A stretch of 64,000 nucleotides of DNA from Blasia pusilla (Eukaryota), in assembly GCA_050084515.1 (NCBI GenBank), contig CM114271.1:3782001-3846000 (forward strand). Reading direction: 5' to 3'. Positions 1 to 60,167 of this stretch are shown here, in pieces. Under the pieces are notes generated by a model. That model was not told the origin of the DNA. It made no database searches and was given only the letters and a program-made list of their open reading frames with translations. The translations under genes and the position numbers were made by a program. The first letter of the stretch is position 1. Every line of letters begins with the position of its first letter.

Positions 1-92
1 ATAGCACAGGGTGGACGAGGCTCGATATGCCGATGTAGATTGAGGAGTGGAGTTTTAGGCCGGGTGTGCCGGTTTTACTACTCTTTATTTTT
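1..92 (+). repeat. 3' part of the 5' terminal repeat (block B) of copy 1
   Basis: Matches 9032-9123 with 3 mismatches, then diverges into internal sequence without a following A block. Confidence 0.9.
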
Positions 93-1393
93 ACATGAGA
101 AAGATGTCAGGGGGCTGGTGGGAATTCGTTGTTTGCTGGTAGGCAAGCGAGTTGCCTTGGTCGGGAGCCCTTGGAGACGTGTGTGTGACGTTGTGTGTCA
201 TTTTTTCTGTTCGGAAGGCCGTGGGCGGAAGCGTTGTCCGTTTTTCTCAGATTTTGCTGGTGCGGATTGATGGGGGATAGCAGCCGAGTGTAGCGTGTGG
301 TGGGGCGTCGCGTGTACGCAAGTAAGGGTGTCGAGAGAGAAGGAAAGGGCAGGTTTGGGTCTTGCAGCCGCCGGGGGGCTGTCAAGTAAAGACGGCTAGG
401 TTAGGTTGCGAAGTTTAGGGTTAGGGCACGGACGGCAGGGCGCGGACAGCAGGGCGCGGACGGCGGACGGCAAGGGCGCGGACGCCGCGGGCCTCCCCCC
501 CCCCGCATTTAGGGCCCAAGGGCCGCATAGGGCAGCGGGCATAGTCGGTCGGACAGTTGTCGCATACGTGGTTGGCAGGACAGACGAGGTTAGTCGGGCG
601 AACGTGAGTGGAGATTTTCCAGACATGAGTGGGAGCCGACCAGGGTGAGTCACGTTACATACCGCGCGTGGGGATAGACAGAGAGGTTTGCACGACATGA
701 TGTTTTGGGGCGCGACAGGGTTGCGAGAGTTTACGATGGAGGGGCAGTGTGCATGATGCCGACGGGTTGTCCGCATCTGTTGACGGGAGGATCGACGTGT
801 TGGTCGAGGGGAGTGTTATGTGGCGGAGATTGTCATATCATGTGGAGGAGTGCATATTGACGGTGCAGCAGGTTGGAGGGCGTGATCAGGTTATCCATTC
901 GAGTCCCTTTTCCCGCACTTGTCGTGTATGATTGAGAGTGCTGGGTATCGGGTAGTAGCTGGTGCTAGATGGGTGCAGTGATGGTGACGAGTGTAGATTC
1001 TTTTCATGTGTAGCATGTTGGTGGATATACGGCGGTTGCCGAGTAGGGGTCGCGTTTATGACCCGAGAGTGTGTCGCTAGGTTAGGTGAGTCAGTTGGGA
1101 GGCTCATGGTGAGCCCGAGTGTTGAGCGTGCGTGAGGCCGGGTATGTCATCATGGGATTGATGTTAGCATAGGTGAGCTAGTGAGGCGTGTGGGAGACTC
1201 TCGGTGAGTCTGAGTGCTTGAGCGGGTGAGACAGGGTTTGTCATCACGACGTTCTTCCAGGGTTCGGAAGAACGGGGTAGTGCGAGCAGTGGTAGTGGTG
1301 TGACACGGAGTGGAGTGAGATACTGAGGGGTTACCACTGAGGAGCTCCCTCGACATCCATCTCGGATGGATCGTCATCATCGGACCGGGTCCG

Positions 1394-2480
1394 GTGACGA
1401 GATCACCGGCGAGAGATAGTAGTACTTGGCAGGAGATGGACGACATGGGCCATCGAGGCATGCGTCGTTTCTCGGGTGCAGTGGGCACCATCGACTTAGA
1501 TGATTTCATCCAGGAGTTTGACACATGGTGCGACTTCCAAGAGATACGGACCCCGACACGGTTCAACCCTTTCATGGCATGGAGGGGTTGTTCCAAAGAT
1601 TTGGAGGGTCCTCCGATGGATGACTACATGGAGTTTCGATCACTATATTCAGAGAGATCGATGCCTGGAGGATGTATTGGGCTCGGGGTATGTGTCCACT
1701 AGTGGTCGAGGCATATGATGGGATTGTGAGAGAGAGAGACCCACACCATCAGCCCGGAGACTAGATGGAGAGGAGGGCGGTGACACAAAGCGATGTGGCG
1801 AGACCTCGGTGGTAGGGGGCCACCGGCTTCAGCCCCACAATGGAGTTCTTCCGACGGTTGGGGAAGAGCTACCAGCGTGCACGCACCGACAAGCTGAAGA
1901 GTCTCAGGATTTTCAACGGCGATCGGGTGAGAGTGCGAGAGAGGCCTTCACATGCATGAGGAGGCTGATCATTGCTACGTTTGGAGGATCGAGGCGCGAT
2001 CGACCCAAAGATTGGCACTGGGTTCGGACCGAGAACTACGGAGGAGAGTCCGAGATGCGGTGATGATTCACGCCGAAGCCCACATTGAGGTGGTCTTTGA
2101 GTTGTCCGAGCGTATTGAGCTCAACATGAGTGAGGAGCAGGTAGTGACCGCTGGATTTTCTCGAGAGTCGACGGGTCCATTTAGCGGCGGTGACCCCACA
2201 AAGTGCCCACGAGCACCGATCACACGGAGCGGACGGTGTGCCTAGAGAGGGCGGGTACCGTGAGCCTATGAGGCAACGACCGCACCTACATATGTTGCCC
2301 GGCGAGGACCGATGTGGTCTTGTTGGGCGTGTGGAGGGGCCCATAGGCAGAGAGGCGCCCACAACATGGGAGAGGACCACAGCGCCTCCGATTGCGCGAG
2401 AGCCCAGAGGATGGCCCCACCACAGCACCAGTGTGACCATTGCCACGATATGGTCACACTAGGGATAGATGTTTTGACCT
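1394..2480 (+). pseudogene. gag: gag (capsid-like region plus CCHC zinc knuckle), frameshifted
   Basis: RFSGAVGTIDLDDFIQEFDTWC capsid-like segment. The knuckle CDHC.RYGHTRDRC is reconstructed across a frameshift at about 2430-2475 and has a counterpart (CDYCERYGHTRARC) in copy 2 at about 53514-53555. Confidence 0.7.
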
Positions 2481-3019
2481 TTGCCAAGGGCACGCGTCAG
2501 AGGTAGGCCGAGGGCCTGGGGCGGCCGCCTGGAGGAGGTCGGGGAGTTCTTCTGGGCGTGGTGTAGAGGACCACCACCAGCCAGAGGAGATGGAGCAGAG
2601 CACGAGCCGGCACTTCTCTCACGATCGATCGGTTGGAGCGGAGGATTGCGCCATGCGATGATGCGGCTTAGGAAAACGGAGGCTGCGGCGCTAGTGTGAC
2701 TCGGTCTCTACCTCTTACCCCGACCCGGGTGAGATCTCTCCAATATGGGATTCATGTGTAGTGTAGCCAGGTTGAGGCGATTGCTGATGGTGACTCGGGG
2801 TGCTGCGAGAGGCACCGAGCCATCGAGAGGTGGAGTTGAGATTGACCCACCAGAGGGGACCGATGGGCGGCAGGCCAGGGTTCCACAGTCGTTCACATTG
2901 TCGGAGGCACTACACACACCATCGATGGTGCCTCGACGACCAGCGGTGCCTACAGTTCAGGCACCTACGTCGACGTCACGAGGAGTTGGAGTGAAAACTC
3001 CTATGCCGGCTCGAGTGGA

Positions 3020-3865
3020 GTGAAAACTCCTATGCCGGCTCGAGTGGAGTCAGTGTCGACTATAGTGTTGGAGGTGGCCACTAGAGTGAGTCAGACTCCG
3101 CTATTTTCCGCCTTAGAGTTGGCGACGTTGGGAGTTGGACCAGTGAGGTGTTCGGTTGGCCGCCACGCGTTGTGTGAGCATGGAGAGATGACTGCTTCTT
3201 GTTCAGAGGTAGTTGAGGAGGTGGTGGACTTGCCCTCAGAGCCGGTGCTTGGGACGTTCCCCACAGAGTCATGGCATGCGGCGGCGGCGAAGTTGGTAGA
3301 TATGCCAGCTCGACCGGCCATAGAGCGAGCAATGGTGACACCTGGAGTAGTGTTACTGGATAACCGAGTTGGATTATTTTGCTTGGTTAGTCCGACGGGG
3401 ACAGTATACCACCCGCAGTGCGTCCTACTTGATTCGGGAGCGCAACCCTTGATGTTAGGGAAGGCGGCGTGTTTAGCGTTGGGATTACGGAAGGCCGACA
3501 TCGAGCCTTGTCCCTTCGAGATACAGACCTCGATTGTGTGCGTATCACCCACTCAGTATATGACTCGACATGAGATTGTTGTGAGAGTCCAGCCAGAGCA
3601 TGCGACGGATAGTGCTATGGTGCGCACACGTGCGATTACGACACCGGTGAGTAAATGCGATGTGTTGGTGGGGAGTACAGTGTTATATCCCCTAGGATTC
3701 ATCCTTGACTTCTGGGAGGAGACCGTTGCTTATCGGCCAGGATGGCGGCTAGGTGACGGTCGGATGAGTCAGTTACCTGTGCAGTTTGCGGGACGAGGTG
3801 GTCGATCACGAGGCGAGTCTGTGACCACGTTGGCGGCTTTCACAGGTAGTGTTAGCTGGCCATGA
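3020..3865 (+). pseudogene. pol: pol: retropepsin-like aspartic protease region
   Basis: VLLDSGAQPLML catalytic motif and downstream CDVLVG; homologous VLLDSGVQPVML in copy 2. Confidence 0.85.
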
Positions 3866-4146
3866 GAGTTGTTGGAGGGGAACGCACATGCGGAGGATGT
3901 CCTAGTAGCGGATAGTCCCAGGGAGAGACAGGCCATGGCGGGTGTCTCTTCCCATGTTAGCGATGCCTCTTCACCATTATGGGGTACGACTCGAGAGCTA
4001 CAGAGGAGTGCCGACGACCTCGTGAGGCAGGCGTGGAGTCATGTTTTTATCCCAGAGCAGCGAGAGTCACGTGGCGATCGGGCTCTTGGAGTGGAGACGA
4101 TGACCCCACTAGATACCACACCTGTTGTGTGGCAGTGCCCAGAGGA

Positions 4147-5085
4147 GGGTGTTAGGGTGTTAGATCTCTTTGGAGGGATTAGCACCGGATTGGCGGCCAT
4201 ATTGCAGGCAGGCATACGGGTGCATTAGTACCTTTATGTGGAGAGAGATGAGACCGCACGGCGAGTATCATTACGTCACGTGGCAAGATTGGTCCAGAGG
4301 TATCATGAGTTGTTGTCGGTATCTGCAGTACGGGGATACCAGCATACGCTACCCGCCGACATATCTTTGGTGGGGGCGCAGGATCTGGATAGAGTTGGCA
4401 CCATTCATTTGGTGATTGCTGGATGGCCATGTCAGGGTCATTCATCAGCTGGCCGAGGATTTGGATTGCAGGATCCGAGGTCAGGGATGTTTTGGGAGAT
4501 GCTGCGAGTAGTACGACACTTGCAGCAGAGTCAGATATGTTCTCCAACGTACATTTTGGAGAACCTGCCGTTGTTGGGAGATATTCGTGCACGTGTGATG
4601 ACGAGTGTACATCAGGTGAGGTCCTGGTTGGGACCGGCTGTGTTGTTAGATGCAGCGAGAGTTGGGTCACGTGCCCATCGTCCACAACTATGGTGGACGA
4701 ACCTGATACCATCAGAGGTACTGAGTCGAGCCTACAGTGGAGTCCAGAGAGCACCACATCTCACGGTGGATGCTATTTTGGACTCAGGGCGTCGATCTCA
4801 GGTGGTGACACGCGATGATAGACCACCATTGGCCACGGCCAATAGGGTGGGGGAGTTGAGGGCAGCCTTACCTACGTTGGTGAGCTTCCCAGCATCCCAT
4901 GCCTTTCGTCAAGGAGGACCAGGCATGATTTGGGATGAGGTGACCGGAGTATTGGAGGAGCCTACAGCAGATGAGCGCGAGCGCGCCATGGGGTTCACTA
5001 CCGGTACTACGGCGGTGCCAGGGATGACTGAGGCATCACGGAGACAGGTGTTGGGGCAGGCGATGGACCTCAACTGTCTCACATG
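4147..5085 (+). pseudogene. C5 cytosine DNA methyltransferase domain (DNMT3/DRM-like) within pol; one internal stop at 4226
   Basis: Motif I VLDLFGGI (about 4157-4180), II YVERD, IV IAGWPCQG (PC at 4427-4432), VI ILENL, VIII AHRPQLWWTNL, IX ERERAMGF, X RRQVLGQAM, in canonical non-permuted order and in the same frame as the protease. Confidence 0.92.
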
Positions 5086-5529
5086 GATAGTGAGCCTAGG
5101 TATGGCTGAGCAGAGACGGATGCGAGTGTCATCCATGCCGTCACGTCCACGAGTTGGACCACTGCCTACAGGGTCTGTATAGGCATTGGCTGGGGGCGAG
5201 ACGAGGAGAGATAGGCACCCATGGACTTCCTGGGACGTCGTTCGAGCAGAGAGTGTGAAGGCGGCTAGAGTAGCACATGTTCATTTTTTGGATGTGGAGC
5301 ATGGTGTAGGAGGTCGAGTGGAATGGTCATTATGGAGGTGGCTAGGGTTGCTACATAGCAACCAAAGCCGGAGGTTGCGTCCTCTCCGAGTGAGGTCACG
5401 ATGGAGACTTAGGAGCCTGTGATAGGTCTCAAGTTGATAGGAGGAGAGCGACGGCGAGTTCATAGGTTTCTGAGAGGGCATGTCAGTTGTTTTGCCTTTA
5501 GTATGAGAGACTTGGGTACGCTGAAGGGT

Positions 5530-6830
5530 CCCGGGATACGGATTGAGTTGGCTAGTGATACGCCGATCTTTCGTTGACCCTACAGGTATTCTGATATGGA
5601 ACGAGCCTTGATTCAGAGCAGGAGTCAGGACTTGTGGAGTTATCACATGGGGAGTATGCATCTGCCACAGTCATGCTGGCGAAGAAGGATATGTATGGCA
5701 ATTAGACGGATAGGCGGATGTGTGGAGATTACCGTCCTATCAACCAACAGACGAGGTCAGATCGGTATGCCATGCCTACTCCTGAGGAGATCTTTGATGC
5801 GGTAGGGCATGCAAAGATCTTCAGTACTTCAGATCTCCGTGCTGGCTATCATCAGCTTCCTATCAGGTTGGAGGACAGGGAGAAGACAACATTCTGGGGG
5901 ATAGATCGGTTTGGGAGAGATTGCTTGTATCAGTGGCGGTTCTTACCATTTGGGTTGAAGAACGCGCTTGCGGAGTTTCAGAGAGTGATGGATAGGATTC
6001 TGGCTGGCTTGGATTTTGTACGATGTTACATAGATGATATTCTTATCTTCAGTTCCACGGTTGAGGAGCATGAGCGACACTTGGAGGAGGTGTTTCGGCG
6101 ATTGCAGTTACATGGACTGAAGTTACATCCAGGCAAGTGCAGATTCTTTCAGGAGCAGATTGAGTACTTGGGACACACCATATACCCGAGTGGGTTAGGC
6201 GTTCAGTAGACGAAGGTAGAGGCTATTGCGCAGATTCCACGCCCTACAGATGTGAGTCGAGTCCGAGCATTTCTTGGACTGGCGAACTTCTATCGACGGT
6301 ATGTCAAGGGTTTTAGTGCGATCGCAAAGTCTTTGACCTTGTTGACGAGACTTGATCAGGTGTGGTTGTGGGGAGATGATCAGGAGTGAGCATTTCAGGA
6401 GCTCAAGGACAGGTTGACGTCCTCACCCATTTTACAGAGACCAGTTAGGGGTCGCCCATTCCAGTTACATACGGATTGGAGCATGTTGGGTCTAGGAGTA
6501 GTGCTTACTCAGAGGGATGACGAGGAGAGGGAGTTCGTTGTGGCTTACGCGAGTTGATCGAACAACATTGTAGAGGCAAAGTACAGCTCCTACGAGGGAG
6601 AGTGCTTGGCTGCAGTGTGGGCCGTGGCACATTTTAGGTGCTATTTATTCGGCAACCCTTTCACACTTATCACTGATCATCAGCCGTTGAGGTAGTTGAT
6701 GGAGTCCGACAAGCTTACGGGAAAGCTTGCCAGGTGGGCTCTATTACTACAGGAGTATGAGTTTGAGGTGGTTCATAGGGCAGGTCGGCTGAACCAGGAT
6801 GCGGATGGGTTGAGTCGTAACCCATGTCCG
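5530..6830 (+). pseudogene. pol: pol: reverse transcriptase and RNase H, with stops and frameshifts
   Basis: RMCGDYRPIN, DLRAGYHQL, PFGLKNA, YIDDILIF, KLHPGKC, YLGH; RNase [44 protein letters not shown]. Confidence 0.95.
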
Positions 6831-7169
6831 AGTCAGAGAGACGACATTGGAGCTCGATGGCACGGAGAGAGTGATGAGGAGATGGTGCCGGGTTGGCATG
6901 CATCTGCCTATCTTTGTTGGTTGACTATGGCAGGTCAGCCACAGGTGATGACTCCAGTGGTGGGATTGGATGATGAGTCTTTGGATCCGGAGGTTAGTGA
7001 GGAGGCGACAGGTGGTCGTGATATCCATGACGACGTGGAGGTTGTGGACTTCTTGCGCACCTTTGGCGTCATTGCGAAAGTACTGATGAGTCTTTGGGAG
7101 CGGATCGGATCCTGAGAGAGCCAAGAGGTTCGGTGGGAGGGACTCACATTTTGCGGGTATGGGGAGATG

Positions 7170-8453
7170 GTAGGATACGAGTGGTACCTCATCCTTCCCA
7201 GCGAGCACGTGTAGTGCGACATGCCCATGAGGAGTTGGGACATTTCGGAGTAAAGCGCATTTACGCCTTACTCCAGGTTGAGATCGGTGGCGCGGCATGC
7301 ATCTGGGTACAACGATTTGTGGCAGATGTATGGTATGTGACAGAGTGCGAGCATCCTTCAATGCTCCCACTCGCAGATTACATCCTTTGCCGATTATGGG
7401 TTTAGGTTATCGGTGGAGTTTAGACTTTGCGGGACCTTTGCCATTGTGGGCGTCATCATAGGTGCGTGTTGGTCATGGTGAAGCATTTCTCCAAGTGGAT
7501 AGAGTTGGTGGCACTACCGGACAAAGCGGCGAGGAACGGCTTATGCGTTTCTAGATCGTGTGCTTAGTCACTTTGGTGCACCGGCAGAGGTGTTGACCGA
7601 CAGAGTACCGAGTTCGGGGGAGAGTTTCAGGCCTTGTGTGATCAAAGGCCGATAGATCACCGCACCACGTCGAGGATCATCCTGAGGCGGATGGATTGGC
7701 GGAGAGAGTGGTACAGACGGTGAAGAGAGGATTGCGCAAGTATGGCTTGCAGCGGGGACAGTTGAGGGAGTGGGACCTCTGAGTTGCCATGGTTGGCTAT
7801 GGGTTATCGCTTTAGTCGGCAGGCATCATTGGCGTCATTTTCACCGTACTTTTTGCTCTTTGGGAGAGAGCCGATTTACTGCAGCGATTCGACGTAACAT
7901 GGCGGAGGTGTTAGATCTGGATGATCCGGATGTGTGGGTGCAAGCATGTTCTCAGAGGGCAGAAGTTTTTCGTAGAGTTATGCCTATGGCCTTTGAGAAC
8001 TTAGCTATTGCCCAGCATAGAGATACATTGAGGTCCGCGACCATTCGTGGAGGAGGTTATCATCCAGGGGTTAGGAGGTTTCATCCTGGAGATTACGTGT
8101 ATTTACAGCAAGCGGCACCCACGACGCTAGATGTCACTGCAGGGCGCACTATCCTACGTGTGCGCGAGGTATTACCGACCGGAGTCCTCATGTTGGAGGG
8201 ACGAGATGGTATGGTTTGGAAGGATCATGTGCGCAATTGTGCGCCATGTCATCTTCCGAACGTAGATGGGATGGTGGATCCAAGCTTGGCAGTAGTACCT
8301 GCAGGCTTGAGGTGTATGTTGTGCGGATCTGCGAGGGGTGCAGCCACCATGTTGGTATGTGATGGTTGTTCTCAAGGGTGGCATATGTCATGTCTGACCC
8401 CCCCTCTTGATGTGGTTCCCACGGGACGATGGATGTGTCCAAGATGTGTATAG
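7170..8453 (+). pseudogene. pol: pol: integrase (HHCC plus rve core) with C-terminal PHD finger
   Basis: AHEELGHFG...C.VC, WSLDFAGPL, EHFSKWIELVAL, FGAPAEVLTD, HPEADGLAERVVQTVK; C-terminal CMLC...MLVCDGCSQGWHMSCLTPPL..VPTGRWMCPRC. Confidence 0.9.
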
Positions 8454-8529
8454 GGTAGTAGGTCATGTCAGAGAGATGTGATATTTTCTATCTGGAGTTA
8501 GGGGGATCCAACTGCCAGCTAGGGGGGCG

Positions 8530-9261
8530 GTTGTGTGATCTCCATGTATATGTATGAGTTTATTTTTGTACATGTGTGGATCGACCCGTGTGTGGGGAAG
8601 ATCGATGTTGTGTGGTGTAGATGTGACGAGCGATGTATGTTGTGTAGCGATATGTATGCGCACGACAACTGTCACATCTGAGTAGCCGATAGGCCGAGAT
8701 CTATCGTTTATAGGGCGTAGGAGCCAACGGACTATCTTGAGTGTAACTTTGTCCCACAGTGTCGGATGAGGTTGAGGATAGGTCCATTGTGTCAGGAACG
8801 TTGTTTCTGACGACTTTCATGTTGAGGTCTTTTACATCCGGGTGACTTGTTGACCAGGTCATCTGCCCCTGGTAACCTGTGCGCGCAGGTTACCAAGGGA
8901 AGGGATATTCTTAGGGGAAGAGCCTTTTGGCTCTTTCCAACCTATATAAGAGAGGAACATGTTGGGCCGTTGGAGCACCTCCCTTGTAGGTGTGTGAGCT
9001 AGGAGTAGGGTGCTAGCGTCCGGATTCCTTGATAGCACAAGGTGGACGAGGCTCAATATGCCGATGTAGATTGAGGAGTGGAGTTTTAGGCCGGGTGTGC
9101 CGTTTTTACTACTCTTTATTTTTGTTGTGTGATCTCCATGTATATGTATGAGTTTATTTTTTTACATGTGTGGATCGACCCGTGTGTGGGGAAGATCGAT
9201 GTTGTGTGGTGTAGATGTGACGAGCGATGTATGTTGTGTAGCGATATGTATGCGCACGACA
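8530..9261 (+). repeat. 3' terminal repeat complex of copy 1: A(8530-8667)-ac-B(8670-9123)-A(9124-9261)
   Basis: The two 138-bp A copies differ at 1 position. B starts TGTC and A ends GACA. A purine run AGGGGGG at 8521-8527 precedes A, and a TATA-like CTATATAAG lies at about 8942 in B. Confidence 0.92.
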
Positions 9262-10339
9262 CTAGACCAATACAAGAATATGGATCTGGTTTAACCCTTG
9301 TGAAGGTCAAGCACCGGCGCCCTAGTGGATCTAAAGACACAGGAACTTGGAAGCCTTACTAAGAAAAACAAACCTTATATAGAGTATTACGATGTAGATT
9401 ATCTCTAGAGGGGAGTTGAAGAGGGAGGTTGCCACCATAGTTTCATTATGACATACATTACTCTAATTATTATGAGTGCGATACAAAAGCATGCCAAAAT
9501 GCAAAGGAAATTTTGAACTAGTTTTTACTTGTTGGGGATGACTATGATGTAAAATATTCGAAAGAAGGAGGAGTGTGGTAAGTTAAAAAAGTTGGGAGGT
9601 TGTCAAGTCCCACGATTTGTAACAATAGCAATTGAGAATTTTTTTTCTAAATATATGCAAAAAGATACATATTAATTGTTCAAAATTTTTTAAGGAGAAG
9701 GTTACGTTTAATCATATGGGTTATTCTTCAAGAGGAGCATATTTCTTAATTTAAAAAAAGTACACTTCAAAAGAGTTACATTTTTTTTCTTAGCATGATA
9801 TTTTTATTTTTTGTCAATTTTGTATTTGGTTTTTGGGGGTAGTTTCAAACATAAGGTCTTTTATTCTAGTTTTATCATGGTGGTTTCAATTTTTTGAAAT
9901 TAAACATAGGTTCTTTAAAGACTTGCATTTTGCGAGCGTTTTAACAATACTCCTCATTTTTTGGAAAGTAAATTATTGACTATTTCCGTACATGTTCAAA
10001 GAGAGCAATGTAGGGTTGAAAAATATAGCTAACTAGATTGGTTTCCATAATTAAAACTTCCATTATAGTATAAACTATATGTTGTGTTTTCATTGAATTT
10101 TTTGTGAACTTTTGACTCATGCAAAAACATCCCAATATTGGCAAGTTGTTATTATAGGGTTTGGTTATAAATCCTCAAATACTCTTATATATTCTTTTCT
10201 TGGTTAGGAGTTTCAAGTTTAGGCATCTTAGAGGATGCTCTCACTAACTTTTGGCTTATATTAATCATTGTCTTGGCTCGGAATTCTAGGTTTAGGCATA
10301 TGTGAGTGAGTTGGTTTTTAGTCACTGGAAAGTCTGAGT

Positions 10340-10560
10340 GGCCTATGGGACCCCCTCCACATATGTGACATTGACATCTCATCCGACACACACCTTCACA
10401 TCTAGATTTCAAACATTTCTATTTTGAAGTTCCCACGGTGGAGATTTGGTTTTTTGAGTGAAGGTCTGAAATCTTTTTGTTTATCTAAATTCTTGACACG
10501 GGAGCATGGTTAAGGCACACACACATGAAGGGCACATAAGGCGAACTCTCTCTCAAACAT
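10340..10560 (+). repeat. Dispersed diverged repeat, second copy at about 46710-46895
   Basis: Shared collinear blocks cttcacatc..atttcaaacattt, aattcttgac, cacac..acat.aa.gg.aca.aagg...ctctc.ctc. Confidence 0.5.
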
Positions 10561-28700: not shown

Positions 28701-30219
28701 AAGGTCAAACGAATCAGTTTTATACAGTTTCCAGGTAAGAAGGTCATCTGTGAGATTTTAGACCCCATCATTGAGTGCTTTGATCTCCTTCCGATGACCC
28801 ATACGTGAAAGAAAGCAGCACTTCAACGCTTAAAATCGATTGACATTGCACAATCTCGTGGCTGAATGCAAGAAAACTACCCAACAATGCACAGCAATTC
28901 CACCCAAGAGTGAGGCATTCCCCCACCTTCAGAACCACTCCGCTCACCAAGAACTAGTAGGCTCCCTCAGATTGCCAAGGACTTTTCCTTATCAACTTCA
29001 TCGAACATCTTGGAAAATGTTGAACAGAAAGAAAAGAAGAGAGAGACTGTGCTCATGAAGTAGTGCCTGTCGTAGCCTTGCGACCATAGACCCCGCGCCC
29101 TGGTTGGACGGTGCTTGAGACTGGGATGGGTGTAGAGAGAGAAGCAAGTGAAGAAGGTACCATATAAGAGGAGGGAGACACTCTCATATAGTGTGAGTGC
29201 TGACCAAACAACGTGTTTGTGCGGAGCTTCCAAGTGTCAACCAAGAAACTCTTCACCACACCATCTACTTTACCTGATTGGGATCCCCAATAGACATTAC
29301 TTACCAGTGCAGCAGCTTTGGGCAATGAATCAAGGCTACTAAATGTGTTGAACAATTCTCGTGTTACCAGCTTAGCAATATCAGCATCTGCTCTTGCTCT
29401 GTGTGTTGTGAATTTTGCGCAGGAGACCAAGTAATGACTTGATGTTTCATCCCCATCGTCACACAAGGCGCAAGAGTTTAGTTGTGTTCCCATCCTGCTT
29501 TTCTTATGGTTCAATGGGATTGCCCCCCGTTCTGAACTTGAACTTGAGCCGGGTTCCCAAGCAAGGGGTTCCCCGCAAATAGTTCTTCAGTTCTGCCTTC
29601 TCAGGATATACCGTCAAAAGAGAGAGGTCAGACATTTTCATGGCTTCCTCCATGCTGTTCTGCTGTGAGCGTTTGCCCACTGCTTTGGTTATGGTATCCA
29701 CGAATGCTTTCTCATCTTGTTCCCACAGTTCAGGCCCTGCTGGGAGCTTGGATGCTTGCACAATCTCTTGAACCTTTTTCGTCCAAGATTTGGCCTGCTT
29801 TACGGGTCTTCTTTGGGTCCAAGTTTTCCCCATCACCTCTTTAGGATAGCGATGGGAGTCCATTGTCTCCAGCTGCCTCCACCATTTCAACTTGGCGATG
29901 TCACGTCTAGCCTCCAAGGGTTCCACACCAAGTTCTCATCTCACACCAACTCGGGCTGTTCGTGAGGAAGTTGACATCATACCCCGAAACGCCTTCCGCT
30001 GCACAGCTTCAAGCCTGTCCCTTTGTTTGGTGTTGGCATCCCACACTGCTGCCCCATATTCCCAAGAAGAGAGAGAGAGAGAGAGAGAGAATGTTCACCT
30101 GAAGCACGTGCACACTGAGTTGCGGGCCTGAGGGCGGATCGGAGCAGGCACGAAGATCGATGGGAGGGTGTGCGGCATGACTGCTTCAGAAACAAGGCTC
30201 TGGATGATAGAAGCGCCAT
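25783..30219 (-). CDS. HAD-superfamily hydrolase, HDHD3-like, with N-terminal organellar transit-like peptide (9 exons)
   Basis: Motif I LLVDVGGTL (about 28440-28475), AFAEPWPERLRYE, GDGRPFW, motif II VVSNFDSRL, III EIGYEKPAPQIF, IV VHVGDD...DKKGA. Exon 1 is 30099-30219 and the stop is at 25783-25785. Confidence 0.92.
29046..30065 (-). mobile_element. 5'-truncated non-LTR retrotransposon (RTE-X-like ORF2 C-terminus) in intron 1 of the HAD gene
   Basis: EYGAAVWDAN...RLEAVQRKAFR...ELGVEPLEARRDIAKLKWW thumb-like region, then LKFKFRTG and a CALC...ETSSHYLVSC zinc-finger-like motif, with stops. It begins abruptly next to (GA)n at 30066-30090. The clade call is tentative. Confidence 0.82.
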
Positions 30220-30388: not shown

Positions 30389-31230
30389 GGAAAGTAAATC
30401 GAAGGAAGGATGGAAAGGAGCAGAGACCTGTTAGTCACTGGGACTACATTTTGGGTAACACTGGTTTCTACTGCTGAATATGGAATCAATCACGAAAACT
30501 ATCCACTCGCTCCAACGTCAGTGTGGGCATGTATGCTAGTCCATGACTCACAGAGATGGACAACGTGAAACAGCTACTGCAAGAAAAGGTAGAAAATGTC
30601 ATCTTTGATGGCTGGTCTTTATGCAATCTTGGGCTGCGATGTACCTCGTGTCAGCAGACTTCCAGAACTAACGAATCGCTTGCATTCCCCATATCCAAAC
30701 TTCCTTCCTCCGTATTTGAGACACTGCATTCGTCATCTAAATCCTGAGCTGAAACCAGAACCGAGTGCTACTACGAGAGGGGAGTGTTGTCAGGGTGGAG
30801 TTGCGATGGTACTGTTGTAACTGTTCTTCAGTTCTTCAGTTCTTGGGCAGATTCGATGAAATCCTTGATTTCAACCTCTTACACTCAAGAGGGACTTGTT
30901 GGGATCAGGCAAATCGAGATAGCTTCCATGTCCTGACTCGAATGGGCATTTGAAGTATGAAATGAAAAAGCCTGCCACTTAAAAAACCCACCATCATAAT
31001 CGGTAGGGCTACATGTTAAGCATCGAAGTTTGTCATTATGGTTTATGGTTTATAATAAGTGAACCTTAAAGTGATTATTGGGGCTCGTTGCAATCATCGA
31101 AGTTTCTTGTCGTGCTTCATTATACTTGATCCTTTTCAAAATCGAAGGGGCTAGATGTAATCCTCGAAGTTTGTTGATCCCCTTCATCGTTCTTCATCCT
31201 TCCAAATATCTGGTAGTAATATGAAAACTT

Positions 31231-31612
31231 CAAGGTTTGTTGTGATACTCCATGAAACTTGGACCTTTTAGAAACATTATTATGTTTCCATGTCCTCATT
31301 CGAGAGTCTTTGTCAAGCTTCGTTGTGATACTTCATGAAACTTGAACCTTTTGGAAACCTTGTTATTTTCCATGTCCTCATTCCAGAGTAGTAGTCAAGG
31401 TTTGCTATGGTACTTCATGAAACTTGAACCTTTTAGAAGACTAGTTGTGTTTCCATGTCCTCATTCAAGAGTACTGGTCAAGGTTTCTTGTGATACTTCA
31501 TGAAACTTTCTCCTTATAGAAGACTTATTATTCTTCCATGTGGTCATTCGAGAGTACTGGTCAAGGTTTGTTGTGATACGTCATGAAGTTTCAGCCTTTT
31601 AGAAGACTTGTA
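31231..31612. repeat. Minisatellite, about 83-bp unit, about 4.5 copies
   Basis: Recurrent caaggtttgttgtgatacttcatgaaacttgaaccttttagaa...ttccatgtcctcattcgagagta. Confidence 0.9.
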
Positions 31613-33524
31613 CTAGTCTTCTAAAAGAGATACCCTTCATGTTGTTTTTTTCCCACAGCACCATCAAATCAGATCATAAGTCCACGCATATATTCTTAGG
31701 GCAGTCCCACCAGAACTCAGTATTCTACTTTGGAGATATGAGCTCTATTGTCATGCCCTACTTCTTCCATTCGAGTATGTCCAGCATCTTTGGGCCTTTT
31801 CTGCAGTTACAAAACATTGTACTGCTTCTTGGCAACGCTCAAAGATTTCTGAGGCACAATCCATACTCATGGGTTATTCCAGCTTACCAAGTGTGACAGA
31901 CCAGGAATCTACATGGAATCCTCACCAGAATCATGCAAACTCCAATTTCTTCAGATCTGCTGCTGAAGGAAGCTCCAACGATCATACAATACTGAAGCCA
32001 ACAAAGCTATCTAGCTTCAACCATTCATTCATTCGAGTTCACTCCTTCTGCATTTCAGATCAGAATTCAGCACTAGAATTCTTGTGTAGACAGTGTTGGT
32101 ATCAGTAATATGGTACAACCATATTACTGAAACGTATGAACAGTTAAAGGTTCACTATGTCTGTGGCTGCATATTTGATCTTCATCACTTCATCTGAAGA
32201 GAGATGTTTTTGCCATTCTGCAATTGTGAGTATTCTCCCTCTACCGATTTTTGTATCACCCTATAACTCTAACATGACATGAGAGGACTCAGCAGATTTT
32301 AGGTTAAGTGGGAGGTCTAGAATTCTTGCGCCAACACCAGATTATTGATTTATGAGTGTGAACAAAGAAAGGTTATCTTCGAAAGACACGACTACTCTTC
32401 ATGTAGTCTCTTTCGAACATTGAAACTTTCGAACTATTGCCTGTTTCGAACATTGACGCAGCGATGAAAATCGTGGCTATATCCTTCGATTCCTGAATCG
32501 AGAGACTTGATTTCTGTCTAGAAACACATTCAGCTGATTATTCTCCTCTCCAGACTGCTCTCAGTCCCTTCATGTGGATGGTGAGCACTCCCAATATATG
32601 ACAGAGTCTCCATCTTCTCCCTACTTTCTTCACACCCTCCCTCTGCTCTCATCCTCAATCTCTACGAGCACCGTCCTAACCACGAGGCTATGGCAGCCAC
32701 TACTTAATGGGTAAAGCCCCTATACCATCCTTTGATTCTGGTGTTCGAGCCATAGCAGATCTAGTTCATATGTTTAACAACAATTCCAATCCATGCGAGA
32801 CTCCGAGCTAAACATCAAAATATACCCTAGAACCACACCACTGCCATGTTTCCATTCAGTTTCACCTCAGGAATTGCCATTCAGATTGCAAGCAAGCCAC
32901 CACCATAGCTCACACTCAAAAGTGGATACCTACCTGAAGAGAAATAACTATTGGCTCAGCACCAGTACGCTTGGTCCACACCACATAGGATTGCGCTCAT
33001 CATCCTCCGCCATTAAAACAGTCTTCTACCAGAACTATTGTACAACCCAGTCATGCAGCTACGGATGAAGGAAACTGACAAACAAGGTCCTAAGTCTACA
33101 CTCCAAAACTGAGGCCACGAAATTCTTCTTGAGGTTCCAAAGCTTCGCCAAGCTGCTGAACTGCACCCGAATTCAACATATCGATACCACTCGTACGCTG
33201 CTCCAGAGTTTAGGTGTGAAGGCGAATCGAGTAATCCAGCCCTCTCAAAAGTAGCATAACCACCACCTTCCCACAAACTACTCAAGAATCGTCCTGTCAC
33301 TCGACGAACACACGAAAATCCTCCGCGAAAACACGACTGTACAAAGTTGAACTATCTGCAGAATCGAACCATGTGGGCACGATTCCAACTTCTTTTGAGC
33401 CGTTGAGGAGAACAACTGCCATGGAGTTCAGAAGGTAGCCAGAAAAAATCATCTAGATTATGTAGTCAAGAGTGCTAGAGCGGCCAAGATGACAACGATT
33501 TCGAATGGGAGACAGGCCTGGGAA

Positions 33525-35165: not shown

Positions 35166-38100
35166 TTACCCGTGTGCTCTGCGTTCTTCCTCATGTCGGG
35201 CATGTCTGGCGAGAGTATCCATGAGGAGAGGGGGTGCGTAACGGGCTGTTCCATCGTTCTCCTCACAATCGATGCAGAACGACAGTAGAATGGTATCGAT
35301 GGCCATCTCCACCACCCCAAAGAACATGGAAGCTATAACGTATCCAAAGAGCCAGCAAAACTGCCCACACAAAGGCAAAACAGCCGCTGACAGTGAGTTT
35401 CAGACACACACAAGCACATGATGCATCACATCTTCAGATCCTCAGCTGTTCAGATGAAGCTATAAGCTATGAGAGGTGATCGAAGAAATAAAGACCCTAA
35501 AGAGTACATTCCCCTCACTTCCATAGCTTTCAGTACAAAAAGCTCCGCAGATTCAAGCAAAAGAGAGAAATGGGGAGTAGGCATAGCAACGGGTGACGAT
35601 GACCTACCAGGACAGGAAACAGTGGCGAAGAGATTTTTTTAGATCCTGAATTGTAGACGTGCTGGTCCAGCATGAGGAAGGCGAAAAACGCGCATGCCAG
35701 ACTCACAGAAAGCTTCCCCAAGAACAAAACGATATCTCCAACGATGTTCACAGCTCCTACCCTCAATATGTTGTTGATGATCAACCCAGAAGCCTTTGCG
35801 GCAGCTCCGAAGAACCCTTTACCTTTGATAGCAATCTGCAACAAAGAAAGAAGAAAGCATTCGTGTGACCGCGTAAATGAAACTCAGCTGAGGGCAGAAT
35901 AATATCACACTAGAAGTGCTCATTTTGCACAGAAAGCCAAACGTACAAGATAATCTTGCACCTGTTGAAATGCAATCTTTAGTTCGAAACAAATCGAAAT
36001 CCAGACCATCTAGTCACGAGTAGCAAGAGATTACTAGTTGCATATCCATAGTCGCAAGTGAGAGCGTACCACTATATAAGCGTTTCTGTTGATGAATTTG
36101 ATTGTCCATTCGATACAGCCCAAACAACACTGTGCACAACAGCATAATATCGTGACCAAGCAACCACCAGGAGCCATCTCTGCTGCTTTGATCTTCTTGC
36201 GGATGGCGTCCAGGATGAAACGCACCATCTGAATTACAGCTACCAGAAACGAGCCCACTGCCATAGAACCCAAACTATAACGGACGAGTCGTTTGGCAGA
36301 TGAGAGAACGGGAAAAGTCGGCAGGAGCTGCAATCCAACCAGACCAAATTTGAGAATCCAGGGATATTGGCAAAACATAGATGGTGTGGGTAGCAAATTA
36401 CCTAAGACCTACACGATTCTCCATCTTCCGCTCATCCCAAAATGCCAAGAAAGTCGAAACTACGATTCAGGTCCTCAGCCCACACATACAATAAGCATTG
36501 CAGCAGTATGTTCCTTTTCATGGTTCATTGAGGTATATCAGCTCATTCGATACACTGAGCTGACTGCTGACCAAGTGCATCATGACTAAGATTGCAGTGG
36601 AGCTTACAGATCTGTCACCGCGAACCCAGTAGTAAGACACTACTGCACCAGCGATTATGGTAAGCGAGCATGCGATGATAAACTGAGTTGTCCAGAAGCC
36701 CCCAAATATGTGAAACAAGATAGCCCATACGATGTTTTTGCTGTGGTGAAACTCATATCCACAACAGCCACCACAAGTTACATTTTGTGTTTGGAGGTCA
36801 TAAGCACAGCACCCATTGTTGCATGTATTTTGTGTTATCTCGCCTGCACTGAAGAGGTACAGGAGCACTGCCGTCCAGTAGATGAAAAACATGACCATAA
36901 GAAAAGCTGGGATGATTGGGTAGATCATAAGCGATGGAATCGCTCCGATTGCCTTCGCAGCTACCTGCACATGCAATGATTGACAATTTTGTGACAGTTC
37001 TGTCGCCCACTGACCTTCCCATCTCTGTAAACTAAAGTCTAGCCTTGGACTGGCACAATTCTCTGCATCTCTTTTTGAGCACAAACAAACTTGCTTGCAA
37101 AGAACTCTCAAGCCCATTGTTTTCAGATGCCTGTTTTATTTTGACGCTGTGTTCATTCATATACAGACCCACAGCACTAAATGAACTTTTCTTACATTCA
37201 ACGAGAGGAAGTGATCAGATTAGATCGTAAACTAGAGCTCTTTCGGATGTAGATAGGAAGAGGTTCACTCACCTTGACGACGGCCACCGCAATGAAGACA
37301 CGCTTGATGAGCACCAAGGTGACAAGGACTACTATCACGGCGATGACTGTCATGATAACGGCCACGATCTTCAAGTGATTTTGCATCTGCAAGAGCAACG
37401 ATGGTGATGAGACTCAAAAGGGGAAGTCTAGATTACCATTGGTGCTCGCGAATTTCTTTCTAGTTACTCAATTGACGATCATCTGCAACGCTCTTCAGAA
37501 ACGCTACTCCAACATCCAGACATAGGAATTCGGCTACCCGCTCCACCCCGTTCGATCTGAGTGTCATTCTTGTAACCCACAAAAGGGTGAAGAGTATTGA
37601 CGAAGCTTTAACTGAATTTCCCTTTGCCATACATTGTGTCACTTCGGATCTATGCCATAGTCTTTATGTCTAAGATGTGGTTTATCAACTGACTCACAGA
37701 GTGCGATGTCTCGAGTGCGAGTGAATCGACAGCACCACTACCAATAACAGCGGAAATGGCATTGGTCCCGATCCACCCAGCTGCACAAAACCAGGCAAAC
37801 CTGCACTTCAGTTTCCAGAGAACCCAAACCGCAACAGGCACCCGAACATCCACATACTTATGCCACTCATTGATGGATGCATAAGAACTAATTTCCTGGT
37901 GCACACGAGAGGATTCGTACCTTTCACATAGAAGTAAACAGTTACAGCGATGGTGGCAAAGTTCAGCACAATGATGCTGATCCAGGTGATAACCCCAACG
38001 AAGAGGCGAACAAGGATCAGCCATGTCATGGACAAAATCAAAGGCACAATTCCTCCACATACCACTAGCACGGGCCAGGCATTTCCAAGATCTGCGACAT

Positions 38101-42899: not shown

Positions 42900-45400
42900 T
42901 TTTCTGGGACTATTTTTTTATTTAAACTTATATTAAAAAAATTTATTATTTAAAAACCTCTTTTCTATCCAAATATTAGCTTAGTATAGGGAAAATTAAA
43001 CAATAATTGGGTCTCTGACATGCTTCACACGTGTCTTTCAGGGGGGAGCCTTCAAGCCAGGGCTAATAGTATGATGTTGAAATTATAAAGTTGACAAACA
43101 AAAGGTAAAGATAAGTTTTTGTTTAAATCTACAAATCATCATGAGACTCTAATTTTGATTTTTAAGAAATTCTTATTAATTTGGAAAGAAATCAGCTATC
43201 CTTATTTTTCCAACCCTCATCCTCAAATAGTAAGAAAAAAAATCACTCATTTTGATCCAAAGTTTGTCCCAAATATTCTTCACAAATCCCTCATAATTAA
43301 AGTTTGAAAATAAAAAAGAAATTAAATTTATTTTCATCTTTTTGACAAATAAGAAATTATCAGCTATTCTACTATTATTTTTATTTTTTCTAAAGTAATA
43401 TGTAATCTCCCTTCCAAAATTCTCTTTAAATACAATTTTTAGTTTTTTATGAAATATTGAAAAAACAAAATTAATTTTTAAAAAATGAAAAAATAAATTT
43501 ATCATAAAGAAGATTCACACTATTTTCATGAAGATTCTATTGTCTCTTAAAATTTATTAAAAAAAATTTGATATAATTATTAAAACCTCTTTTCTATGCA
43601 AGTTTTGGCTTAATCTAGGCAAAATTAGACAAAAATTGAAAAGCTTCACATATGGCCTTCATTGGGCTAGCTTAACGCCCTTAATAGTATGATTACTACT
43701 TAGCATGCCAACTACGAAAATTATTTTTCTAATTATTTATATTAAAAAATTTAAAATCTATTTTTTATTTCTTTTAAATCTTAGAGTAATAAATTTTCAT
43801 TTTTAAATAATACTAAACTCTCTTAAATAATTTCACTATTCAATAAAAGTTTGAATAATACTTATTCTTCCCCTTGCACACATCCCACCAAAAGAACGTC
43901 CACTAATTAAATTGTAAGTGAATATTAATTAATGAACTTATTTCCTTTTTTCTTCCAAATTTATTTTCTTTACTTAAAATATAGACCGCGAATTTAAAAT
44001 GTTTTTTTAATTCATCATATATTTTCATCTCAAAATTTAAATGTGAATTTTTTTTTTAAACTTAGAAGAGTAATAACATTCCACTCTTCAAGTGATTCCA
44101 CTCAATTAAAATTTCAATAATATCCCACTCTCCTAAATAATTCCACATTTCAATAAACTTTTAAAAATATCGAATCCTTCTTCATTAAAATTCATTTCCC
44201 TTTCCCATCAAATATGAATAAAGGGCTCATTAAATTTCTTGTTTTTTTAATTTTTTTTAATTTTTTACTATATATACTTTAAATTACCAAATATAATATA
44301 AGTAAGTTAATTAATAAATTATTTTTCTCTTGCACTCAAATTCATTTTCTCTATCCATCTAATATGATTCAAGGAACAGAATTAAAATATGTTTTTCTAT
44401 TTGTCTTATTCTACATTTGGAGTCGTCCATTATATAAAATATATATGAAATGCATAGTTGGAAAAAGAATTCAATATATGGAAGTTTTTCTTGTTTGGAT
44501 GCATATCATTGGGTTTTAATAGCACAGACTAGTTAGCATGTTGGCTTGCCCACACAAATAAAAAAAATGTACAATTTATAAATATTTTTCATTTCATTTT
44601 TTCATTTTTTTAAAAATTAAATTTATAATAAAATTTCAACTTTTAAAATATTCTACTCTTAAATTATATTGAAATAACACCCAACTTCCCTTAATATTTT
44701 CACCCGCCTCCCCCATAAAAGTTGAAAAAGTATCTACCCTTCCCACCAAAATAACATCCACTAGTTGAATCGTTAGTTAATTTTAATTCATAAAATTATT
44801 TCCCTTTTCCAATCAAAGTCATTTTCCTTTCTCAAAATGTCAAATTTTAGTTAAAATGATTTTAATTTTTTTAACCATATTTTTATTTCAAATATAATCT
44901 CTAGTGTCTCAAATCTTAAAAGAGTAAAAGCATTATAGTCTTCCAAGTGATTACATTCCTAAATTAAAATTTATATAATATCCCATCTTCCTAAATAATT
45001 CCGCCTTTCCATAAAGTTTGAACAATATCTACTACTCTTCCATTAAAATTCATTTTCCCTTCCCATCAAATATGAATAAAGAGACAAATTATTTATATTT
45101 TTCATAATTATTCCACTATATTGTCTTATTATACACCTAGTATCATCCATTATGATATAAAATTAGTTGAATAATTGATTTAAAATTTAGTTAATTGAAA
45201 CATTTTTCCATTCAAATTCAATTTTCTCTTCCTATCTAATGTGAATTAAAGGAAAAATTTCAATAAAAAAAAATTGTCTTATTGTCCCACTATTTTATCC
45301 TATTGTACATATAAACTCACCCATTATACTTTAGATTTCTCTTGTAAAACGTTTTTTTTTACAACAATTTTTTTTGGGAAGTATCAACCAAATATCTTGT
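42900..45400. repeat. Very AT-rich region built of diverged direct repeats (probable non-coding TE interior)
   Basis: About 42945-43073 resembles 43576-43693, and about 43870-44225 resembles 44740-45080 (e.g. tcccatcaaatatgaataaag twice). Confidence 0.55.
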
Positions 45401-55239: not shown

Positions 55240-56170
55240 GAGGGTATTTGCGTGTTGGATCTCTTTGGAGGAATCAACACTGGTTTAGTTGTTGTTTTGC
55301 AGCCAAGAGTGCGCGTGCAACAATACCTATACGTTGAGATTGATGATGTTGCAAGGCGCACTTCACTTCACCATGTGGCGTAGTTACGCCTCTACTTTTC
55401 CGACTTGTTTTCTGCCTCCACCATCTAGGGATACTTGAGCTCTCTACCGAGGGACATTTCATTGCTGGGGATGGAGGACTTGGAGGAGGTAGGGACCATA
55501 GATTTGGTCATTGCTGGTTGGTTGTGTGATGGCCAATCGAGTGTTGGACGAGGTAGCGGGTTGGCTGACACTTGATCCATGTTGTTTTGGGAGATGATAT
55601 GGATCTTGCGACACTTGCAGGAACATCAGTCCCATTCTCCAACATACATTCTGGAGAATGTGCCAATTTTGGGCGATTCGAGGTCCCGCGTGGTGACAAG
55701 TGCACATTAGGTGCCTGCATGGATTGGCCCGGAAGTGTTGTTGGATGCAACGAGTGTAGGTTCATGGGCACATCGCCCACGCCTTTGGTGGACCAACTTG
55801 GTGGCACGTGAGGTTTTGCGGAGGGCATATGCGAGAGTGGAGCGCCCCTCCCATTTTTTGGTGGATTCTATTCTGGATCCAGGTTGTCAATCACAGGAAA
55901 TACGACACGATCATTGACCCCCATTGACTATGGTCAAGTGGATAATCATTCCACGAGCAGCCTTTCTCAAATTGGTGAGTTTTCTTGCTTCCTATGCATT
56001 CAAGGAGCCCGAACCAGGCTTAGTTTGGGATGACCAAGTACAACGATTGGTGGAGCCCAATGCCGATGAGTGAGAGCAAGCGATGGGATTCCCCACAGGA
56101 GTGATCGTAGTACCATCACTATCAGAGGCATTAGGACGTCATGTCTTGGGTTAGACGATGGACCTGAACT
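55240..56170 (+). pseudogene. C5 cytosine methyltransferase domain of copy 2, degenerate
   Basis: VLDLFGGI, YVEID, IAGWLCDG (PCQ decayed, Cys kept), ILENV, AHRPRLWWTNL, E*EQAMGF, RHVLG*TMDL; same frame as the downstream RT ORFs. Confidence 0.9.
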
Positions 56171-59100: not shown

Positions 59101-59382
59101 GGAGAGTGATGCCCATGGCGTTTGAGAACTTGGCGATTGCACAATATCGGGATACGTTGAGGTATGCGACTATTCGGGAAGGTGGTTATCGACCTACTAT
59201 CCGGAGGTTCCATAAGGGAGACTATGTCTACTTGCAGCAGACGGCAAGAGGGCGACTAACAATGGGACCACATGAGCACCCGGAATTTTTGCTCTTAGCG
59301 TCTGAGAGATGTAGGTCATGATAGGTAGGGATAGATGGCTATCTGGAATTAGAGGGACCTAACCATCGACAAGGAGGCAATC

Positions 59383-60167
59383 GGAGATATTTTGGTACTT
59401 CTCGCCTCTATGTTTGGGTGCCATGAGTTAGCATGGGATCGTGCATGTGTATGTGTGTGTTCGATGAGAGCGATGTATGTTGTGTAGCGATGTGTATGCG
59501 CACGACAACTGTCACGTCTTTTAGGATAGATCAGTCAGATCTAGTAGAGCGCCTTTGCAAGTAGTAGAGGACATGCTTAGGAGGTTGAGGATTGCCTATA
59601 GAGGCCCCAGGAAACTTGAGAGAGTAGGTTTCCCTTTCATTTCGGCTCATTTGGAACCATATTGAAAAACTTAATATTTGGGTAAATATCATTTTGGATA
59701 AATGCCATTTTGAATATATGATCAACTTTCTATTTTGGTAAGTGGCCCCTGATCTCCTATATCAAGTCAAGAGCCAATGAGGTGACTTGGGAGCATATGT
59801 TACCATGGAGAGAGCTTGGGGAAGGGGAGGGGTATACCTCAAGGAGGGAGAGCTTGAGAGCTCATTCTCTCTTTGTTGAACCTCTTGGCAGAAGGCATCG
59901 GAGCTATGGTCCCTTGTCTTGTGAGTTTAATCCAAGCCTCTCATTAGGAGAGTGGGTTTGGCTTGACACTGAGAGAGATATATGAGAGAGCGTACATGTG
60001 AGAGCTATGGTGTTGTGAGAGAGATTTGACCTTATTTTAATTGGAGATATTTTGGTACTTCTCGCCTCTATGTTTGGGTGCCATGAGTAAGCATAGGATC
60101 GTGCGTGTTTGTGTGTGTGTTTGGTGACAGCGATTTATCTTGTGTAACGATGTATATGCGCAAGACA
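59383..60167 (+). repeat. 3' terminal repeat complex of copy 2: A(59383-59507)-ac-B(59510-60042)-A(60043-60167)
   Basis: A 125-bp A block is repeated at a 660-bp offset; the junction cgcacgaca-ac-tgtcac is identical to that of copy 1. Confidence 0.92.

Follow-up and report, generated by a model that had tools for sequence, protein, structure and literature searches.

Split direct repeats in a DNMT3-carrying Ty3/Gypsy-type retrotransposon family from Blasia pusilla and a possible origin as a permuted long terminal repeat

Introduction

How does a retrotransposon that encodes a DDE integrase come to end in split direct repeats instead of a pair of long terminal repeats (LTRs)? The question is raised by an element at the start of a 64,000-nucleotide (nt) stretch of DNA from Blasia pusilla (GenBank assembly GCA_050084515.1, contig CM114271.1, positions 3,782,001 to 3,846,000 of the forward strand; the whole stretch is termed the window), which contains three copies of the element's family. 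Copy 1 starts with a block B alone and ends with a block A, the dinucleotide ac, a further block B and a second block A. A first-pass annotation of the window had noticed this arrangement and had proposed that a Gypsy-type element uses a DIRS-like, transfer RNA (tRNA)-independent replication route, possibly by an undescribed mechanism. Here we confirm that the B...A-ac-B-A layout is real and that its coordinates are exact. It is a trait of the family, found in all three window copies, in the related loci L004, L014, L049 and L058 and in L060, the relative with intact open reading frames (ORFs). Judged by the domains it encodes, the element belongs to a very abundant family of Ty3/Gypsy-type retrotransposons with a DNMT3-like methylase, a DDE integrase and a PHD finger, of which it is a decayed copy. 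Target duplications of 4 bp in relatives point to staggered, integrase-type insertion, and we tentatively discuss the split repeats as a permuted LTR.

In textbook LTR retrotransposons and retroviruses linear DNA is inserted, and the two LTR tips are the substrates of the integrase. Split direct repeats of the form A1...B1-A2-B2 are a feature of PAT and Ngaro elements, and retroelements with a tyrosine recombinase typically insert without target duplication.

Results

Repeat layout of the window copies

Block A is present twice at the 3' end of copy 1, at positions 8530-8667 (A1) and 9124-9261 (A2) of the forward strand, on which all features of copies 1 and 2 lie. Both are 138 nt long and 99% identical to each other, and they enclose the spacer ac (8668-8669) and a block B of 454 nt (8670-9123), which carries a TATA-like tatataa at 8943-8949 and a hairpin at 8917-8937. 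The annotated 3' end, A(138)-ac-B(454)-A at 8530-9261, is thus exact. The end of A2 is the 3' end of the element, where 771 reads pass from A into unlike flanks (agreement 0.33). The next four bases, ctag at 9262-9265, are the predicted target-site duplication, as judged from the 4-bp duplications of relatives, with its partner located upstream of the window.

Copy 1 begins upstream of the window, and its 5' block B is seen only as window positions 1-92, the last 92 nt of B, with 97% identity to 9032-9123. These positions match only B, as the first-pass annotation had stated, and are followed after position 92 by an unrelated leader sequence without any A. The start of the leader (93-116) is where the minus-strand primer site is expected. 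No TGG-type tRNA primer site adjoins B there, again in line with the annotation.

Copy 2 (53513-60167) belongs to a sister subfamily and shows the same layout at its 3' end, with A at 59379-59507, the spacer ac, B at 59510-60038 and A at 60039-60167, the two A blocks being 89% identical. Neither the B nor the first half of the A of copy 2 is related to its counterpart in copy 1. Across the A/B junction the two copies share only 52 nt (8628-8679 vs 59468-59519, 96% identity), and their coding DNA is 65-79% identical. Copy 2 has a missing or unrecognisable 5' end, which was sought by BLAST and via the missing half of a seemingly interrupted PIF1 gene and was not found in the window. This gene is represented by a PIF1-like helicase fragment at 60211-60627 (PF05970, E 3e-29, profile positions 86-203), 44 nt past the end of copy 2. 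A Helitron-like or PIF1 gene may thus have been the insertion site of copy 2; the other half of the gene was not found upstream of copy 2. Copy 3 (63380-64000, minus strand) shows B followed by A at its 3' end and is cut by the window end. All three copies end in ...GCGCACGACA, and their B begins with TGTCAC.

Coding content

The polyprotein encoded in the internal part of copy 1 is decayed, its reading frame being broken by many in-frame stops and frameshifts. The relatives of the close family are all decayed as well, and the domain order was read from L060, the sole relative with intact ORFs. Its three ORFs cover positions 504-7804 of an 8,399-nt contig and yield the Pfam matches Asp_protease, PF00145, RVT_1, RT_RNaseH, Integrase_H2C2 and rve. 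ORF2 comprises the protease and the DNMT, and ORF3 the reverse transcriptase (RT), RNase H, Integrase_H2C2, rve and PHD domains, the alignments to the window spanning 3281-5122 and 5422-8465.

Copy 1 starts its coding part with a decayed gag-like region (1424-2503), where ORF1 of L060 gives a weak tblastn match at 1424-1627 and no Pfam match was obtained. It continues with the protease and a DNMT3-like cytosine methyltransferase (3281-5122; tblastn match of L060 ORF2 with 40% identity, E 8e-131; in-frame stops at 3863 and 4226), which the first-pass annotation had overlooked. The PF00145 match lies within 4229-5179, and the motifs LLDSGAQ, DLFGGIS, PCQ and ENLP are readable in the translation, those of the methylase being motifs I, IV and VI, despite the stops. 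Reverse transcriptase and RNase H follow at 5422-6926 (tblastn match of L060 ORF3 residues 28-534; RVT_1 at 5706-6206 and RT_RNaseH at 6390-6692), with 68% identity between L060 ORF3 and window positions 5631-6926. A frameshifted integrase with the H2C2 zinc-binding domain and the DDE core (7148-7885; L060 ORF3 residues 599-847; PF17921 and PF00665) carries a PHD finger at its C-terminal end (8313-8447; PF00628, E 3.5e-11), and the pol stop codon is at 8451-8453. The methylase is placed between protease and RT also in copy 2 (54388-56235). The PHD finger is present in copy 1 and L060 and lacking in copy 2, where the match to L060 ORF3 ends at residue 925 and about 130 nt (59246-59378) remain before A.

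The nearest solved structures of the L060 pol protein are Ty3 Gag-Pol (7q5b, E 8e-102) and the PFV integrase (E 2e-20), and those of its methylase are DNMT3A, DNMT3B and DNMT3C. No tyrosine recombinase (PF00589) and no other recombinase was found in the ORFs of the window or in the three ORFs of L060. Pfam, the structure matches and L060 thus bear out the annotated combination of a protease with an rve integrase. The order protease, RT, RNase H, DDE integrase and the Ty3-nearest RT and RNase H are those of Ty3/Gypsy elements. The ends are not, as there is no identical TG...CA LTR pair: the 5' end consists of B alone and the 3' end of A-NN-B-A. The best named relatives of the methylase are liverwort and moss proteins (63-74% identity), fused DNMT-RT-integrase-PHD proteins are present among unnamed database matches, and related copies occur in a model liverwort.

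Junctions in reads and contigs

Reads and contigs of four public runs were mapped onto window positions 1-9400, the depth figures being those of run X20. Both kinds of junction, from B into the leader and from B into A, are covered by raw reads and by contigs of these runs. The depth is 745 at position 88, 4 nt before the junction of B and leader, and 1208 at position 9119, 4 nt before the junction of B and A2. The passage from B into the leader is thus found at usual depth, indicating that it is a normal feature of the family and not a deletion in copy 1. Because reads running from B into A outnumber those running from B into the leader, solo-like B-A units probably exist. The match of one contig begins exactly at position 8670 and is preceded by 21 unmatched letters. 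Depth ratios between A, B and internal sequence were not used to count forms, since the conserved end of A draws reads of other subfamilies and B diverges faster.

The family is extremely abundant: roughly 1% of one whole-genome shotgun run, X20, is enough to place about 450-2,000 reads, counting both directions, on each position in all but one of the 30 bins. Only the G+C-rich, low-complexity bin 315-628 has a depth of about 59 and is nearly missing from other copies. Differences between copies in this run comprise C>T at 815 and G>A at 978 places, other types being found at no more than 235 places each, an excess as expected of methylated, deaminating repeats. The coding strand also shows a strong skew of G over C (GC skew 0.18-0.32) in window positions 1-10000 and 54000-60000. 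Parts of the element are contained in some air-metagenome runs.

Ends and target duplications in relatives

Relatives were collected by a search of metagenome contigs with a methylase profile, which gave 80 loci; in the counts of distinct ends and loci below, duplicates recognised by identical flanks enter once. These relatives are metagenome contigs of shared ancestry, in which assembly errors are possible. Exact-pattern scans gave no match, neither for the A/B junction among viral contigs nor for the start of B among metagenome contigs; the protein-profile scan succeeded.

The prediction that the element starts at B (TGTCA) without a preceding A is borne out by the relatives. All 19 distinct 5' ends show the start of B (TGTCATGACC) directly after unlike flanks, and B is followed by the leader. 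No A was present within 400 nt upstream of the 5' B in any of the 19, and none followed it downstream. No full 5' B is present in L013/L017 and L040, which are uninformative on the 5' end because of rearrangement or truncation.

The annotation had further predicted a short target duplication matching the bases after the last A. We compared the four bases before B with the four bases after the last A in the nine elements that have both ends in one contig, a perfect match having a chance of 1/256 per element. A perfect 4-bp duplication outside the start of B and the end of A was present in six of the nine (L031, L034, L037, L049, L064 and L070); three of four bases matched in L023 and L041, and two of four in L054. 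These duplications point to staggered, integrase-type insertion in the relatives. They favour integrase-mediated insertion over a DIRS-like recombinase route.

The 3' arrangement A-NN-B was found in five distinct loci, namely L004, L014, L049, L058 (identical to L059) and L070 (identical to L072, rearranged), of which L049, L014 and L070 continue to a last A. L049 is complete, with B at 1766-2074, the internal part, A at 10381-10494, the spacer AT, B at 10497-10838, 19 nt and A at 10858-10971, and its 4-bp duplication encloses the entire B...A-B-A unit. Another 14 loci (L018, L021, L031, L034, L037, L040, L041, L042, L052, L053, L056, L057, L063 and L064) have a single A, running from B through the internal part and the purine tract described below to A and the flank without a second B or A, and four of them show a perfect duplication. 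Such single-A insertions are either direct integration products or deletions by recombination between A1 and A2. Two internal-deletion derivatives (L023/L061 and L032) have RT coding sequence joined straight to block A.

Cis elements of the repeats

Directly before A1 lies a purine tract (aggggggcg, 8521-8529), the likely plus-strand primer. In the relatives, the tract (CTAGGGGGGCG) is conserved together with the preceding 40 nt or so and in every case adjoins A on its 5' side, and no purine-rich sequence precedes B in the window copy or in the relatives. The TATA box is located in B about 170 nt from its end, both in the window (8943-8949) and in relatives.

The relatives also provide a candidate primer site. 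In seven of ten relatives examined, from the 19 distinct ones, leader nt 1 to 10 or 12 are perfectly complementary to a site in B about 30 nt after TATAAA, the complement beginning at leader nt 1 in six cases and at nt 3 in one. This arrangement looks like the self-priming geometry of Tf1. In L049, 9 nt at the end of A were noticed by eye to be complementary to the leader; this match has no counterpart in copy 1 and was treated as chance. ARAGORN detected one tRNA only in the window and the 80 loci, a tRNA-Asn gene at 12809-12882 (minus strand), which adjoins a complex tandem array at 11545-12700 with nested periods of about 321, 222, 99 and 75 nt.

At the transition from A to B the sequence is palindromic. 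In copy 1 the junction gaca-ac-tgtc (8664-8673) brings the 3' terminal sequence of the element next to its 5' terminal sequence, with a 2-nt spacer, and the same ...GACA-NN-TGTC... is present in copy 2, L004 (GC), L014 (GC), L049 (AT) and L060 (GC), NN being AC, AT or GC. The terminal TG and CA of an LTR are thus present at this inner junction and missing from the outer ends of A-NN-B, which read GTTG.../AGTTG... and ...TTTTT/...TTTTC. The last 39 nt of A differ at four positions between the window and relatives whose DNMT protein identity is about 65%. Neither the purine tract adjoining A nor the palindrome had been remarked on by the first-pass annotation.

A joint of variable length, termed x, connects the 3' B to the last A. 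The two blocks abut (0 nt) in the window copies and in L014. The joint of L049 has 19 nt that duplicate part of B, and the 15 nt of L070/L072 start with the first 10 nt of the leader, that is, with the primer site. A similar joint of 9+6 nt was found in a contig of run X1. Variation of this kind is as end-joining would give.

Other features of the window

Further features of the window lie apart from the three copies. An exon-like ORF at 36518-37132 (minus strand) encodes a plasma-membrane choline transporter domain (PF04515, E 6e-25) and is probably part of a host gene. At 29053-29583, a weak match to zf-RVT points to a further remnant of a retroelement. A+T-rich tandem or dispersed repeats, whose periods are about 83 and about 120 nt, are located at 31230-31615, 52357-52766 and 44101-45102.

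Discussion

The purine tract adjoining A, the promoter in B and the primer site after B fit a permuted LTR, and taken together the DNMT domain, the purine tract and the palindrome suggest such a permuted LTR and not a wholly different replication scheme. We therefore favour, with a confidence that stays somewhat below even, a model in which reverse transcription makes the repeat A-NN-B and permuted insertions arise because the integrase cuts within this repeat. Reverse transcription would yield A-NN-B at both ends of the complementary DNA (cDNA), with the purine tract before A as plus-strand primer, B carrying the promoter and the terminal redundancy R, and the minus-strand primer site adjoining the end of B. 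The integrase would ignore the outer tips of the repeats and recognise ...GACA-NN-TGTC... in their middle. Nicks after both CA dinucleotides, 2 nt apart, would release an end starting with B and an end terminating in A, both already 3'-processed, and their insertion would duplicate 4 bp of the target. Were both ends to come from the junction in the left repeat, joining of the B end to the A start by the host, before or after insertion and in the manner of a two-LTR circle, would result in B-internal-A-NN-B-x-A. If the ends came from two different repeats, or from a circle with one repeat, the product would be B-internal-A. Both forms exist, B-internal-A in 14 distinct loci and the full form in 5.

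Put more generally, two kinds of end might be separated in this family. A-NN-B would be the repeat of reverse transcription, the DDE integrase would cut the built-in palindrome much like a restriction site, and a joined or circular cDNA would be inserted. To this wider formulation we give a possible, more guarded standing. It resembles the circle-junction route of IS3-type elements, as well as the transcript logic of circular pararetroviruses. Integration from a circle junction is established for insertion sequences of the IS3/IS911 type.

Several points weigh against the permuted-LTR model. Every step beyond the layout and the flanking 4-bp duplications is one we infer, among them cleavage at the junction, an intermediate that is joined or circular, self-priming and the ends of the transcript. 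The model predicts a 5'-duplicated form, B-x-A-NN-B-internal-A, which was seen in none of the 19 distinct 5' ends, as compared with the 3'-duplicated form in 5 of 21 3' ends. The single-A copies can equally be explained as later deletions by recombination between A1 and A2. The leader of copy 1 has no complement of at least 8 nt in B, and its best duplex with B is weak (hairpin at 8920-8940, -23.3 kcal/mol; 2.7% of shuffles are as good). Self-priming therefore rests on the relatives, which share ancestry and are not independent of each other. Finally, the junctions of classical retroviral circles have a spacer of 4 nt, and the spacer here has 2 nt.

An explanation that we regard as unlikely, and yet as a serious one, is that the full form is the only product. 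A linear cDNA would be made by a template switch like that of DIRS and PAT elements, with A-NN-B serving as bridge or template and B-x-A2 being copied from RNA, and the integrase would use the true ends. Single-A copies would then be later A1xA2 deletions, in keeping with the ease with which deletions arise between short direct repeats spaced by 340-450 nt. A deterministic route of this kind would give only 3'-duplicated forms, as was found (0 of 19 5'-duplicated), and x is 0 in all window copies. The similar 15-nt joints in two distant hosts, each made of 9-10 leader nt and 5-6 further nt, also speak for it, as they could mean that the joint is inherited. On the other hand, given a purine tract that precedes A and a primer site that follows B, we could derive no priming scheme that gives A after the 3' B. 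Three related elements, moreover, show three different joints (0, 15 and 19 nt), and single-A copies stand against full copies at 14:5 among the relatives.

Very improbable is a true element of the DIRS/PAT/Ngaro type that is moved by a tyrosine recombinase via a closed circle, the integrase being a passenger or inactive. Its appeal lies in the layout, which equals the A1...B1-A2-B2 of PAT and Ngaro and also the DIRS arrangement 'A-coding region-B-A-B' given in the legend to Fig. 1e of de Mendoza et al. (2018, Nat Commun 9:1341, PMC5890265). The ORFs of the window and the three ORFs of L060 lack PF00589, and RT and RNase H are nearest to those of Ty3. The relatives have 4-bp duplications, which are not known from recombinase elements, and this explanation is nearly refuted.

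A conventional LTR element, with B-A or A-B-A as LTR, could have lost A from its 5' LTR at the microhomology tttatttttacatg that positions 81-98 indeed share with 8562-8577 and 9156-9172. Such a deletion is refuted for the family and keeps hardly any probability, as the junction of B and leader is as frequent in reads as internal sequence (745 at position 88; bins about 500-1100), all 19 distinct relatives have it with A neither upstream nor downstream of the 5' B, and the purine tract lies 5' of A and not of B. Repeats invite misassembly and solo-like B-A units are probable, but an assembly artefact, or a small B-A element nested beside a B-internal-A element, is equally close to being dismissed in view of junctions crossed in independent runs and contigs, only 2 nt between A1 and B without a duplication around B-A, the L049 duplication enclosing the whole B...A-B-A unit, and the recurrence of the structure in three window copies and in relatives of other sources.

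The family has a forerunner in print. KnitGypsy-Dnmt3 from Klebsormidium nitens is described by de Mendoza et al. (2018) as a Gypsy-type element with a Dnmt3-like methylase and DIRS-like repeats. With Gypsy domains, DIRS-type repeats and a DNMT already combined in the legend to Fig. 4c of that article, the word 'undescribed' in the first-pass annotation is not supported. Its interpretation is supported for the layout, the integrase and, in relatives, the predicted ends, and is not supported for the undescribed status and a DIRS-like route. By description, the two elements share a Dnmt3-like methylase inside a Gypsy polyprotein as well as DIRS-like repeats. They differ in the host, the best named relatives of the present element being proteins of liverworts and mosses, and none of the matches listed, 120 and 58 in number, was named as a Klebsormidium protein. 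The passages describing KnitGypsy-Dnmt3 are silent on target duplications, a purine tract before A, a palindrome, single-A copies and a mechanism. The layout in a DNMT-Gypsy element is thus in print without a mechanism, and the window element is a further member of that kind. 'KnitGypsy' was found in the full-text literature only in de Mendoza et al. (2018), and a 2026 preprint mentions 'streptophytes (Gypsy-DNMT3)'. A search of the literature on split direct repeats with an integrase and on Gypsy, methyltransferase, bryophyte and PHD gave no title or abstract start that pointed to this layout in an element with a DDE integrase.

With PAT-like, Ngaro and DIRS elements, including SymbioDIRS-Dnmt3 as it is described in that article, the family shares the split direct repeats and an internal junction that equals the two element ends joined. 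It is set apart from them by the DDE integrase in place of a recombinase, the Ty3-like RT and RNase H and the 4-bp duplications. Ty3/Gypsy elements resemble it in the order protease, RT, RNase H, integrase and in the 4-bp duplication, 4 or 5 bp being typical of plant lineages according to the survey by Neumann et al. (2019, PMC6317226). A primer site that in relatives is complementary to the presumed start of the transcript would liken these to Tf1/sushi and the plant Tcn1 elements as they are characterised there. It differs from Ty3/Gypsy elements in having no identical LTR pair, integrase end sequences inside the repeat of reverse transcription, and an added DNMT and PHD finger. The words PHD, methyltransferase, Marchantia and bryophyte do not occur in the main text of that survey.

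A precedent for the proposed cut comes from retroviruses, as the integrases of HIV-1 and foamy virus are reported to cleave a palindromic LTR-LTR junction, yielding processed ends (PMC1905944, PMC1180852). The likeness lies in a DDE enzyme that cleaves inverted ends where they abut, leaving two processed 3' ends for insertion. By these accounts the retroviral cleavage is a side route acting on a junction formed by ligation of LTR ends, whereas here the junction would be built into every repeat and serve as the main substrate.

The oddity of split repeats in such an element had been noted once before, in a figure legend on a charophyte element, and was left unexplained there. The present analysis adds the layout in relatives of liverworts and mosses, the target duplications, cis elements compatible with a permuted LTR and the repeat-free form B-internal-A. 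If the integrase does cut at the junction, a natural element would integrate mainly by a reaction that is known as a side activity of the integrases of HIV-1 and foamy virus. Such a route would also bear on the origin of DIRS-like layouts and offer a common explanation of split repeats with and without recombinases. A DNMT3-like methylase and a PHD finger carried by the element itself are, moreover, relevant to the epigenetic conflict between transposon and host.

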